A stretch of 64,000 bases of DNA from a virus. Its lineage: Duplodnaviria > Caudoviricetes. Where the stretch lies: the IMG/VR virus record IMGVR_UViG_3300035676_000001; one strand, written 5' to 3'. Positions 4,430 to 7,824 of the stretch are shown piece after piece. Position 1 is the first letter of the stretch, and each line of letters opens with the position of its first letter. Both the position numbers and the translations under genes were made by a program. The notes under the pieces are model-generated. The model did no database searches. It saw nothing but the letters and a program-made list of their open reading frames with translations, and was not told the origin of the DNA.

Positions 4430-5731
4430 TTACTTCTTATCTTTTCTATACTTATTTATGAAATTAAGACCGTATGCTATTCCACCTGGTTGCAGATTCT
4501 CTTTACCAGTCCCGATTGCTCCTGGAGTTTGCTTTGCAGCATACTTAAAAGCACCCAAAGTTCCAGTAAGAGTATTTGGTTTTCCTGGAGACCTATACAT
4601 TCTATCCATCTTGACTTCAGTATATTCAGACAAATCTTTAATCCAAGACTTAAACATCATACCCGATTCAGTTACACAAATCAAATAGTTGGTTCCACGA
4701 CGAATGATACGACCAACCATTCCAGTGTTTAGATTTTCTACCAACTGACCAATTCTAAAAATTGATTCTGTGAGATAATTTTCACGAAGAGTTTGGAAAT
4801 CAAACTTAGGTGCAATCTCCCAAATACTCCAACCTTCTTTAATGTTCATTGAAGCACGAAGATTATCATACAATTCCATTGCTTCCTTGCGCTTCATCTC
4901 TGGAGGAAGACCCTCTCTAAACTTCCTAAAGTCTCCTTCAGCAGCGGCAAGTCTCATTCTTGATGCAGACATTCCTTCTACACCTTTTGCATCAGGGTCT
5001 CTTTCTCCAGCAGAGACTACTTCAATATTATCAAATTGATAAAGTTGCCCGTTATAATTGCCTGATAATTTTTCAAACTCTTTAACTCTATCAGACCCAC
5101 CAACAATTCTTACATTCGTATATCCATCATTATGCGCTTTCTTGAGAACATCAAAAATAGTTTTTGTATTTGCATCATTTACAATTCTTTCACTATGAGC
5201 AGGGAACATCCTTCTCATATAAGAAACTTTTGTATCTGGGTCTAATGGATTCTTTTTCTTATCCTGACTTCTTGAAGGATAGATTAAATAGTCACCCTTA
5301 TCTGCTGCAGCCGATTGTGCAGCAACATCCATCAATTGCTGATGCCCAATCGTAGGAGGATTGAAACGACCAAATGCAATTGTAAGAGTTCCCTTTGTTT
5401 TGGGAACTGGTGGTGGAGTTGCAACAGGTTGCTCTTGTGCTGCTGCCTGCTGTTCAGGAGCAGGTGCTTGCTGCTGTGCTGCTTGCTGTTGAGCAAGTGC
5501 TGGGTCTTGATATCCAGGAGAAGCAATTGTTTTTTCCTTTTCAGTTTGCGCTGGGTCCTTTTCACCAACTTTTTGACGCTTATTATAAAACTTGAGTTGA
5601 CCCCTTTCAGTTTTTGCTACAAACTCTCCTTGCCTATCATACCATCCACCGTGCCCGTCGCCAACAAGACCAAGACGCTGAGCTTGTTGAGATGCAGATG
5701 CTTCAGAGATAAACTGGAAAAAACTTTTCAT
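4430..5731 (-). CDS. Cytidylyltransferase/HxGH-family nucleotidyltransferase with capsid-targeting-like N-terminus
   Basis: FGRFNPPTIGH, VGGSDR and MSASRMR motifs; N-terminus MKSFFQFISE. Confidence 0.85.
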   Translation of the reverse strand: MKSFFQFISEASASQQAQRLGLVGDGHGGWYDRQGEFVAKTERGQLKFYNKRQKVGEKDPAQTEKEKTIASPGYQDPALAQQQAAQQQAPAPEQQAAAQEQPVATPPPVPKTKGTLTIAFGRFNPPTIGHQQLMDVAAQSAAADKGDYLIYPSRSQDKKKNPLDPDTKVSYMRRMFPAHSERIVNDANTKTIFDVLKKAHNDGYTNVRIVGGSDRVKEFEKLSGNYNGQLYQFDNIEVVSAGERDPDAKGVEGMSASRMRLAAAEGDFRKFREGLPPEMKRKEAMELYDNLRASMNIKEGWSIWEIAPKFDFQTLRENYLTESIFRIGQLVENLNTGMVGRIIRRGTNYLICVTESGMMFKSWIKDLSEYTEVKMDRMYRSPGKPNTLTGTLGAFKYAAKQTPGAIGTGKENLQPGGIAYGLNFINKYRKDKK

Positions 5732-5733
5732 TC

Positions 5734-5979
5734 TTATTTTTTAATTCTATTACAAATGTCCGACATTATTGACTTTTCGTTTGCAATAATGTAGTTAAGA
5801 CCATTCTTTCTAATCTTAATATATTTATTCTTTAACAAATCTGATTTATTGGATTGAATTTCCTTATCAAGTGCAAAGTAAAAATACTTGATAAAATCAT
5901 TGAAAACATCTTTTGGTCTTGACTTTTTGGTTGTAAAAATATCAAGAACATTATTAAGGAATGCTTGAAGGTCTTTCAT
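5734..5979 (-). CDS. Hypothetical protein
   Basis: ORF track; ATGA coupling to upstream gene. Confidence 0.7.
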   Translation of the reverse strand: MKDLQAFLNNVLDIFTTKKSRPKDVFNDFIKYFYFALDKEIQSNKSDLLKNKYIKIRKNGLNYIIANEKSIMSDICNRIKK

Positions 5980-7109
5980 ATCAAAAACATTCCAGGTTGT
6001 GCTTCCAAATAATTTCTTGGATAAAATCTGTACATTTTTCCTGCTGCAGTAGTTGAACTTGCAACTTCCATTTTATATCGTATCTGAATAATCAAATTAC
6101 TATTTCCAGATAATTTTGTTCCATCAGAATTTGAACGATAGATTTCAATTTTTGGGTCTCCCGATGCATTTATTCTAGCATTATATCTAGCGTTTGCAAG
6201 AATATCCCTAAACTGACGGTCGGCAACTCTTGTTTTGACTCTACCATCTCCAGTAAATTTAACAAGTTCGGTATTAACATTTCTAGAAAGACCGTAGATA
6301 ATGTAGTCAGCAAACTTTACTTTGGTATCAGTTCTATCTGGGGTATCTAATCCTTCGTTTAACTTTTTAGCGGCATAAGCATAAACAAGTCTTGCTGCCT
6401 TTTTAAGATATTCACCACCTCCAGTTTCTTTTGCGTTATCTCTAGAGGCATATTTTTTTGTGAATACTTCTTTATCAAAAAATTCATCAATAAAGTTCTG
6501 ATAATTATTAGCAACTGGGGAAACATCTAATCCCATTTCACTAAAGATATTCAAAAATTTATCAAATCCCTGACCAGATACTTGGTGAAATTGCTCACCA
6601 CCATCAACTTTTAATGAGTAATCAATATTCCTAAATCTTTTATCAGGATTTGTTGGAGAATTAACTTCTATCTTAACATCCGCTTTTGTTCCTTTTTGGT
6701 CTTCTGTTCCAGCAGCAGTTACTCGAATAAAATCTTCACGAGCATTGATAGAAAGACCTCTTGCTTGTGCATTAAGTCTACTATGCGAATTTACAAAGGA
6801 TACTGCGCCATTTTTTAAATCAGAAACTTTTGCCCAATTTGTTCTATCAGACAAAAAATCTTGTGCCTTTTTAGGAACGGATACAGATACGGACACTGTA
6901 TCAATTACAGCACTACCAACATCATTAACTTGCTTAACATATCCCTTCTTCATCATTTCCGTCAATACGGTATCAACATCCGAACCAGTAACTGTCGGTA
7001 GAGTCTTAGAAGATTTTGTTTTTGCTCTTTTTACAAATCTAGCGGCAACAGCAGCAGCAAAAAAAACTTCAAACAAATCACCTCTATTAGCTGATATTTT
7101 TTCCGCCAT
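5976..7109 (-). CDS. Hypothetical protein, putative PD-(D/E)XK nuclease
   Basis: NRGDLFE ... KADV ... YSLK pattern; CTAAATA late promoter at 7124-7130. Confidence 0.55.
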   Translation of the reverse strand: MAEKISANRGDLFEVFFAAAVAARFVKRAKTKSSKTLPTVTGSDVDTVLTEMMKKGYVKQVNDVGSAVIDTVSVSVSVPKKAQDFLSDRTNWAKVSDLKNGAVSFVNSHSRLNAQARGLSINAREDFIRVTAAGTEDQKGTKADVKIEVNSPTNPDKRFRNIDYSLKVDGGEQFHQVSGQGFDKFLNIFSEMGLDVSPVANNYQNFIDEFFDKEVFTKKYASRDNAKETGGGEYLKKAARLVYAYAAKKLNEGLDTPDRTDTKVKFADYIIYGLSRNVNTELVKFTGDGRVKTRVADRQFRDILANARYNARINASGDPKIEIYRSNSDGTKLSGNSNLIIQIRYKMEVASSTTAAGKMYRFYPRNYLEAQPGMFLI

Positions 7110-7130
7110 AAGACTTTTTGAAGTATTTAG

Positions 7131-7155
7131 TGCCCAAAAGAGGACTTGAACCTAT
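7131..7155 (-). pseudogene. 3' stub of a disrupted tRNA (T-arm, acceptor 3' strand, discriminator A)
   Basis: AGG-TTCAAGT-CCT-CT-TTTGGGC-A; TTTGGGC pairs with the 5' stub GCCCAAA at 7741-7747. Confidence 0.8.
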
Positions 7156-7163
7156 ATCGACAA

Positions 7164-7246
7164 TGCTCCAGAGAAGATTTGAACTTCCACGCTTTTTAAG
7201 GCGGCGGATTCTAAGTCCGCTGTGTCTACCGTTCCACCACTGGAGC
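7164..7246 (-). tRNA. trnL: tRNA-Leu(TAG)
   Basis: Acceptor GCTCCAG/CTGGAGC-A, anticodon arm GCGGA-CTTAGAA-TCCGC, long variable arm, T-loop TTCAAAT; CCA not encoded. Confidence 0.93.
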
Positions 7247-7690
7247 TAAACAATTTCTATTTGAGAATGTATTAGTTTGTGTATGACAATTAGGACATAA
7301 TAATCTTAAGTTGTCGGGTCTGTTATCATATGGTTGACCGTTAATATGGTCAACTTGTAATCTTAATGGTTTTCCATTCCAAGTAGAAGGAATGCCACAT
7401 TCAAAACAAGTATTACCTATTTCTTCTATTAATAATCTATATAGAATTTCACGCTTACAAGATTTACCTTTTAAAGAAGTATATTCTAAAAGTGTTTTCC
7501 ATTTATTATATCCACCATATTGCCTAATTTTATTAGTATAATCTGGTTTGTAATCGGGAATCCATTTTTTATATCTTGCTCGTAAAGTATCTGGTTTACA
7601 ATTTAATTCTAAACATAATTGAGTTGGTGATACTCCAGACAATAAAGATTCTATTATGTATTCTTTTTTGTCGTCAAGGTCTTTTCTCAT
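7226..7690 (-). CDS. HNH homing endonuclease (154 aa)
   Basis: CFEC...LQVDHING...DN...NLRLLCPNCH; start re-called at 7690 just downstream of a late promoter; stop lies inside tRNA-Leu. Confidence 0.88.
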   Translation of the reverse strand: MRKDLDDKKEYIIESLLSGVSPTQLCLELNCKPDTLRARYKKWIPDYKPDYTNKIRQYGGYNKWKTLLEYTSLKGKSCKREILYRLLIEEIGNTCFECGIPSTWNGKPLRLQVDHINGQPYDNRPDNLRLLCPNCHTQTNTFSNRNCLAPVVER

Positions 7691-7734
7691 AATTGGTAGA
7701 CACGCTGTATTATTTATACAAAATACTACTAATT
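7691..7734 (-). promoter_or_regulatory. Late promoter TATAAATA (7711-7718) in loop of hairpin abutting HNH start codon
   Basis: AATTAGTAG ... CTACCAATT arms (8/9 paired) directly before ATG. Confidence 0.7.
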
Positions 7735-7747
7735 TTACCATTTGGGC
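7726..7747 (-). pseudogene. 5' stub of disrupted Leu-type tRNA (acceptor 5' strand, decayed D-arm)
   Basis: GCCCAAA-TG-GTAAAATTAGTAG begins 4 nt after tRNA-Ala and resembles a Leu-type tRNA 5' end. Confidence 0.72.
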
Positions 7748-7751
7748 AAAG

Positions 7752-7824
7752 TGGAGAATAGCGGACTCGAACCGCTGACATCCTGCTTGCAAAGCAGGCG
7801 CTCTACCAACTGAGCTAATTCCCC
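7752..7824 (-). tRNA. trnA: tRNA-Ala(TGC)
   Basis: GGGGAATTAGCTCAGTTGGTAGAGCGCCTGCTTTGCAAGCAGGATGTCAGCGGTTCGAGTCCGCTATTCTCCA canonical cloverleaf. Confidence 0.97.

Follow-up and report, generated by a model that had tools for sequence, protein, structure and literature searches.

A tRNA-Leu(UAG) gene of a freshwater T4-like cyanophage (cyanomyovirus) was found in two pieces, and the 572 nt that separate its 5' and 3' stubs carry a late promoter, an intact HNH endonuclease gene and a second, intact tRNA-Leu(UAG). We consider it likely that a free-standing homing endonuclease, bringing its own tRNA, entered this heterologous tRNA-Leu gene following a putative cleavage, through one-sided and illegitimate repair of the break. 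Homing endonucleases usually spare their host by residing inside self-splicing introns or inteins, or between genes; overwriting a structured RNA gene while supplying a spare copy would be a third solution. The locus lies in a 64,000-nt stretch of DNA (IMG/VR record IMGVR_UViG_3300035676_000001, hereafter the window). Among isolates, the closest is the freshwater Synechococcus phage S-SRM01 (approximately 80% DNA identity), and 14 metagenome runs of freshwater, lake or wetland origin, belonging to 13 studies, contain near-identical DNA. The gene order on the minus strand is gp41 helicase, MazG, a 58-aa gene, tRNA-Ala, the split tRNA with its insert, a 377-aa gene and a cytidylyltransferase-like gene, the product of which (433 aa, 4430-5731) has the N-terminus MKSFFQFISEA. 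The split locus consists of the following features:

7751/7752..7824, minus strand: resident tRNA-Ala(UGC), just upstream of the split tRNA (ARAGORN; Infernal, 73.6 bits)
between tRNA-Ala and the 5' stub, minus strand: 4-nt spacer, CTTT
7726..7747, minus strand: 5' stub (22 nt) of the resident tRNA-Leu(UAG), 'Leu1', with GCCCAAA and a Leu-type D-arm ending in GGTAG; aligns with nt 1-22 of intact Leu1
7711..7718, minus strand: T4-type late promoter of the HNH gene, TATAAATA, present in all cassette copies but L100
7691..7734, minus strand: predicted hairpin in which AATTAGTAG (7734-7726) pairs with CTACCAATT (7699-7691), abutting the ATG
7226..7690, minus strand: HNH endonuclease gene, 154 aa (Pfam HNH and HNH_3; PHROG 10822)
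7164..7246, minus strand: intact tRNA-Leu(UAG), 'Leu2', with acceptor GCTCCAG, discriminator A and a long variable arm (ARAGORN; Infernal, 56.8 bits)
7154..7163, minus strand: 10-nt spacer after Leu2, matching the sequence after Leu2 in locus L090 at 7 of 10 positions
7131..7153, minus strand: 3' stub (23 nt) of Leu1, with the 3' part of the T-arm, TTTGGGC and discriminator A; identical to intact Leu1 at 23 of 23 positions
5976..7130, minus strand: CTAAATA late-promoter-like box (7130-7124) and the 377-aa gene, function not assigned (PHROG 33928)

The HNH gene is the only protein gene with a family match between the stubs, and the tRNA follows it so closely that the last seven codons and the stop of the ORF coincide with nt 1-21 of Leu2, the TAG stop being the TAG of GGTAG in the Leu2 D-loop. 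Neither ARAGORN nor Rfam called a tRNA or an intron from the stubs. Since the same arrangement is present in four IMG/VR contigs from four metagenomes, and is bridged by Logan contigs from four lake or wetland studies, an assembly artefact can be excluded. None of the Logan contigs of four runs that were examined for a co-occurring empty allele joined across the cassette. An initial annotation, made from the letters of the window, had described the 4-nt gap, the two stubs with 7/7 pairing of their acceptor strands, the late promoter, the HNH gene and a tRNA-Leu(TAG) with another acceptor stem, and every one of these details is right. It had also reported that the anticodon and variable arms of the split tRNA are gone, as borne out by the comparison with relatives below. 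Integrase-mediated insertion into a tRNA gene was considered and rejected: there is no integrase between the stubs, and the duplicated segment is the 5' part of the tRNA, not the 3' part.

The same annotation had taken the stubs to be the ends of one tRNA gene and had named beforehand, as a test that might refute it, a search for an intact tRNA at this site in relatives. Such genes exist. Of 51 IMG/VR contigs with an exact match to a 22-nt sequence of the 3' stub, 46 have it as the 3' terminus of an intact tRNA-Leu(UAG) whose acceptor is GCCCAAA, mostly 3-4 nt after tRNA-Ala, so the match is not due to chance; the remaining five comprise four copies of the window arrangement and a locus that is truncated at its start. 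A close relative, L011, offers the best 'before' allele, with an uninterrupted tRNA-Leu(UAG) at the same place. Its upstream region aligns to window positions 9414-7726 with 91% identity, and 49 nt at 7153-7105, including the downstream promoter, are 100% identical. Between these, a 37-nt core in L011, comprising the anticodon and variable arms, is replaced by the 572 nt of the window, with breakpoints at 7726/7725 and 7154/7153 and identical immediate flanks. The 10-nt spacer after Leu2 is not in the empty allele. Nucleotides 1-10 of the 5' stub are identical to L011, while nt 11-22 differ at four positions and resemble the cassette's stub in L098; these four are all the differences in the 75 nt that can be compared (CTTT, the stub and 7153-7105). 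Judged by the 63 flanking nt that are unchanged relative to L011, the window-type insertion appears to be young. The locus is thus polymorphic for presence and absence with sharp borders, empty in L011 and occupied in the window, L009, L016, L030 and L047. One part of the initial proposal, a possible swap of the isoacceptor, has to be given up, because the gene that was destroyed and the gene that is supplied are both tRNA-Leu(UAG) and read the same codons.

Among loci found through the 377-aa neighbour, the site holds tRNA-Ala with an intact Leu gene, tRNA-Ala alone, an odd single tRNA(UAG), or no tRNA. The odd tRNA is that of L063 (1865-1938), where MazG is 97% identical in amino acids and tRNA-Ala is absent; it is 74 nt long, with anticodon UAG, discriminator A and a Leu2-like D-loop and T-arm, but without the long variable arm, and represents either a tRNA-Leu of class-I shape or a gene in decay. 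Three loci with tRNA-Ala only (L058, L075 and L062) have TTTTAGACA or TTTTATCCA directly after tRNA-Ala, ahead of the CTAAATA box. They may be what is left of the 3' acceptor of tRNA-Leu (TTTTGGGCA), which would suggest that the tRNA-Leu gene was lost independently in these loci. In the phages Bellamy and SynMITS9220M01 the next gene comes directly after tRNA-Ala.

The HNH gene and Leu2 travel together. At all 15 loci with full-length HNH homologues (72-100% amino acid identity), a tRNA-Leu(UAG) starts 0-20 nt before the end of the ORF. The stop codon varies by copy, being a TAA that abuts nt 1 of the tRNA, the TAG of the D-loop or, in one case, a codon deeper in the tRNA, and the C-terminal tail of the protein is therefore just read-through. 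The module occurs in at least seven genomic contexts with unrelated flanks; among them are the position after tRNA-Ala seen in the window, several positions in large tRNA arrays (after Arg-UCU or after Asn/His-like tRNAs), a site with a protein gene upstream and tRNA-Ala downstream, and L100, where it is paired with a different tRNA-Leu(UAG). Similarity between the window and the other module copies extends from the D-arm fragment to the 3' end of the tRNA, and the left breakpoint is at the identical D-loop position in all copies. The mobile unit consequently comprises a short tRNA-Leu D-arm fragment, the late promoter, the HNH gene, and Leu2 abutted or overlapped by the ORF. The same or nearly the same Leu2 was found in 74 IMG/VR contigs, 13 with the HNH gene, 54 without it and seven too short to judge, so that about one in five Leu2-type tRNA genes is occupied. 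In the empty array alleles L209 and L184/L186 the start of the insert coincides exactly with the start of the tRNA. As a rule the HNH gene borders its own tRNA-Leu on the 5' side, and the nested form looks like a by-product of entry into a diverged tRNA-Leu gene, its left junction clean and its right one illegitimate. The view that this is a homing element that destroys a tRNA gene and supplies a substitute accordingly keeps its core, a mobile HNH unit with a working tRNA-Leu found in many contexts and in diverged backgrounds, and loses only the isoacceptor swap.

Within arrays Leu2 has a mean identity of 96%, compared with 73-82% for neighbouring tRNAs, a figure biased by the picking of these loci through a Leu2 word; the contrast also holds among loci picked via the HNH gene. 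We further observed mosaic tRNA-Leu(UAG) genes (L201, L176/L211/L227 and L178) that combine the exact anticodon, variable and T-arm body of Leu2 with the Leu1-like acceptors GCCCAAA, GCCTAAG or GCCCAAG, the 3' strands always matching. These could stem from short conversion tracts inside the tRNA, or from compensatory evolution.

The protein matches Pfam HNH (E=1.5e-6), with HNH_3 also above the cut-off, and PHROG 10822 (E=1e-26); only HNH families match, and no GIY-YIG domain was detected. The catalytic columns D-H...N...N and CxxC...CxxCH are invariant in nine homologues, as in a nuclease of the homing-endonuclease family with an intact motif. Among the HNH genes dN/dS is 0.08-0.21, with dS running from 0.3 to >1 (saturation), and by these rates the gene is under purifying selection, the protein maintained and its linkage to tRNA-Leu old. 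At high identity the HNH protein was not found in the isolated cyanophages of the phage collection, where its closest named relative is hegA (F-TflIV) of T5/BF23, with 36% identity over 95% of the cyanophage protein; in a tblastn search, residues 1-146 matched the N-terminal 140 aa of hegA at 36% identity (E=6e-14). An AF2 model (mean pLDDT 73) consists of an N-terminal helical domain and the HNH domain. A fold search with this model returned only weak, generic HNH matches (Cap5, McrA, GVE2 HNH), the helical domain being uninformative. In coliphages a tRNA-Leu(UAA) that heads a tRNA cluster is preceded, at a distance of 6 nt, by a 205-aa HNH gene (Escherichia phage KarlGJung, L172 1306-2016, and about 18 other T4-like coliphages). 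These genes were considered as members of the same family and rejected, as only the 50-aa HNH motif is common and the domain order is opposite.

The D-arm fragment upstream of the HNH gene had been described as decayed, but neutral decay does not fit its distribution. The sequence (A)TTGGTAG is kept upstream of the promoter in every cassette copy, even in L097, where the other stub sequence is gone, and in all eight loci that were folded the minimum-energy structure pairs the fragment with CTACCAA just before the ATG, placing TATAAATA in the loop. The consensus stem is 7 bp long, its changes are G-U only, and one pair is broken in the window; a covariation test of the hairpin did not find compensatory pairs. 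Late promoters within a hairpin that reaches the start codon are described for T4 I-TevI, I-TevII, I-TevIII and segB and for Aeh1 mobE, where early read-through transcripts conceal the start site and late transcripts do not (PMC2988022). By analogy with these T4 endonuclease genes (PMC2988022) we infer a regulatory role for the predicted hairpin, of which the D-arm fragment is a conserved and probably donor-derived arm. That the fragment might also act as an operator, after the example of I-TevI, is speculation.

The preferred scenario starts with a mixed infection, in which the nuclease would break the resident, diverged Leu1. On the left, repair would use some 10-20 nt of homology between the 5' part of Leu1 and the D-arm fragment of the cassette, with the crossover placed inside the first ~10 nt of the tRNA, because nt 11-22 of the stub resemble the cassette fragment found elsewhere (GGTAAA...GTAG in L098). 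On the right, the homology of Leu1 and Leu2 would be too poor, and synthesis would run through all of Leu2 and ~10 nt beyond before the end was joined illegitimately to the resected T-arm of Leu1; a crossover in the T-arm would have given a tRNA with a mismatched acceptor stem. The net outcome would be the loss of 37 nt of Leu1 and the gain of 572 nt, with Leu2, which has the same anticodon, taking over decoding. In read-through transcripts from the tRNA promoter the start site would then be hidden by pairing with the D-arm fragment, while late transcripts, beginning in the loop, would be translated. In T4, elements are known to invade ectopic sites through one-sided, illegitimate repair of a break that involves long resection (PMC2988022). 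The 10-nt spacer is probably donor-derived, on the strength of its partial match in L090; a donor with the exact spacer was not found among the 74 Leu2 contigs, and the right junction can therefore not be reconstructed. The occupied allele retains a complete Leu2 that is identical to Leu2 genes without the HNH gene. If the target were wholly inside Leu2, self-immunity would thus be unexplained. The occupied allele would escape cutting either because the enzyme favours other variants of tRNA-Leu, or because it tolerates or nicks the allele that encodes it.

There is evidence for recent movement at the site. In L009 and L030 the tRNA-Ala is of the L011 form, sharing eight differences from that of the window, and their upstream genes are 91-96% identical to the window; their cassettes, however, have 0-1 differences in 617 nt (99.8-100%). 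Outside the cassette the tRNA-Ala segment has nine mismatches per 100 nt, MazG about 30 in 410, and the immediate upstream sequence differs by 8-9%. The switch in ancestry falls in the 27 nt between the T-arm of tRNA-Ala and stub position 11. A near-identical cassette in diverged backgrounds would be a signature of homing, and the pattern fits gene conversion starting at the cassette. The two tRNA-Ala alleles, A in the window and B in L011, L009 and L030, differ at eight positions, six of which are paired and compensatory, one pair each in the D, anticodon and T stems.

To the right of the cassette, high identity runs on through the 377-aa gene (99.3%, where upstream sequence has 91-93%) and in L030 continues for more than 1 kb past the cassette. 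This long tract could mean that the exchange in L009 and L030 was ordinary recombination rather than driven by the HNH protein. In its broader form, this reading makes the HNH gene a passenger, with general phage recombination at the conserved D-arm and T-arm producing the nested form and shuffling tRNA genes. It would account for the mosaic tRNA-Leu genes with a Leu2 body and Leu1-type acceptors, and for a locus that is a hot spot, found with Ala only, with Ala and Leu1, with the odd tRNA(UAG) alone or without a tRNA; the neighbouring 377-aa gene is likewise exchanged for an unrelated gene in L011. We nevertheless regard it as improbable. A passenger would not be expected to be strictly linked to the 5' edge of tRNA-Leu(UAG) throughout its clade and in unrelated contexts, to share one D-loop breakpoint on the left in all copies, to be under purifying selection, or to have an upstream control region, with a late promoter inside a hairpin, like that of T4 homing endonuclease genes. 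The exchange of the neighbouring gene (window 5976-7109 versus L011 2416-3510) replaces the 377-aa late gene with an unrelated 364-aa ORF, with a junction 5 nt into the ORF and flanks that are 96-100% identical. The 364-aa ORF has no Pfam family. The 377-aa protein has no Pfam match and no PDB sequence match, and its model gave no clear fold match (Foldseek TM ≤0.15; VIA Z ≤5), which leaves the idea that this neighbour is the real nuclease unsupported.

A domesticated nuclease, tied to tRNA-Leu and no longer homing, would leave the split tRNA as a relic of an old event. It might serve, for instance, in competing with co-infecting phages, or in processing or protecting the tRNA locus. SegB has recently been reported to benefit its phage through amplification of the tRNA locus (PMC13096335). 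The saturated synonymous divergence among HNH copies indicates a long-lived association with tRNA-Leu that is, together with the low dN/dS, compatible with a domesticated function too, and Leu2 is nearly invariant compared with its array neighbours, subject to the ascertainment bias given above. On the other hand, the HNH gene is present at only about one in five Leu2 genes, the window-type insertion appears young by its unchanged flanks, and the cassette is near-identical across diverged backgrounds, and we therefore judge domestication to be very unlikely.

That the 572 nt are an intron or another spliced insert of a working tRNA, or the stubs a split tRNA, can in practice be set aside in spite of the 7/7 acceptor pairing and the occurrence of group I introns in cyanobacterial tRNA-Leu genes, as the 37 nt that form the anticodon and variable arms in L011 are missing, the breakpoints lie in the D-arm and T-arm rather than the anticodon loop, and an Rfam scan at E≤10 matched the two tRNAs and no intron model, including Intron_gpI, so that the HNH gene lies outside any intron or intein.

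Invasion by an endonuclease with its own tRNA has several partial parallels. T4 SegB, a free-standing GIY-YIG enzyme of the tRNA cluster, finds its target through a conserved motif in a tRNA arm, cuts within tRNA genes and drives its own gene and neighbouring tRNA genes into the recipient, replacing the tRNA markers there (PMC2330249); its gene is also described as having a late promoter and a hairpin that hides the RBS (PMC2988022). The cassette is functionally similar, in that both are intron-less endonuclease genes in the tRNA region of a T4-like phage. However, the nuclease here is an HNH enzyme, the cleavage shown for SegB is inferred for it, and segB lies between tRNA genes instead of being fused to one, as the cassette HNH is to Leu2; nor has SegB been described as leaving its target tRNA in two stubs that enclose the endonuclease and a replacement with the same anticodon. 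The closest named sequence relative, hegA, adjoins tRNA genes in the T5 tRNA gene cluster, and its annotation is that of an H-N-H endonuclease. In the literature hegA/F-TflIV is given as a site-specific endonuclease and, with F-TflI and F-TflII, as one of the T5 tRNA-cluster HNH enzymes (PMC2330249, citing Akulenko et al., 2004). It differs in having 227 aa, with an extra C-terminal HTH region, as opposed to 154 aa, and in being located after tRNA-Ile2, whereas the cyanophage gene precedes tRNA-Leu; the T5 annotation, which was the basis of this comparison, contains no unit of stub, nuclease and tRNA.

Aeh1 mobE, which leaves nrdA as 'genes in pieces', and T4 mobE/I-TevIII resemble the cassette as intron-less, free-standing HNH genes in or against an essential gene, with late-promoter and hairpin control and with the function of the host gene kept by another route (PMC2790892, PMC2988022). 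In Aeh1 the halves of the split protein reassemble, while in the window the disrupted RNA gene is given up and the element brings a full second copy. Elements that integrate into tRNA genes (attP/attB logic) similarly compensate for the insertion with a sequence that they carry, but they use site-specific recombination where we propose break repair; the cassette has no integrase, is 0.6 kb long, and replaces the 5' side or the whole gene. In the literature that we searched, we found neither a fused unit of an endonuclease and one tRNA gene nor a target tRNA surviving as two stubs that flank an endonuclease and a spare with the same anticodon.

A tentative generalisation, which may well turn out not to hold, is that intron-less endonuclease genes colonise tRNA genes by 'bringing their own tRNA'. 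The replacement tRNA, or its 5' part, would rescue the host and at the same time provide a homology arm, and the displaced 5' fragment of the target would be recruited to time the expression of the nuclease, as a hairpin arm and perhaps also as an operator. If so, the element could hop between non-allelic, diverged tRNA-Leu genes, and the Leu2 sequence may be homogenised across divergent cyanophage tRNA arrays. Selfish nuclease genes would then be able to occupy and reshuffle tRNA genes without an intron, and this would offer a mechanism for the rapid turnover and mosaicism of phage tRNA arrays as well as for the spread of one tRNA-Leu sequence among freshwater cyanophages. The cassette would also illustrate, in nature, how a piece of the target apparently came to serve in regulating the gene that invaded it. 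As the allele before insertion (L011) and the one after it (window) both survive, along with the natural recombinants L009 and L030, the cassette is directly testable in the laboratory.

Lastly, we observed a second tRNA-linked module, in which an unusual tRNA-Ala(UGC) is followed by TATAAATA and then by an unrelated 190-aa HNH gene. The unit is conserved in 22 IMG/VR contigs and several contexts (L071 2121-2801, equal to L237; relatives L238-L258). In L071 it takes the place of the resident tRNA-Ala, which it appears to have overwritten in the same way as the cassette did Leu1, and its HNH ORF extends into what remains of the old gene, the final 10 nt (CTATTCTCCA).
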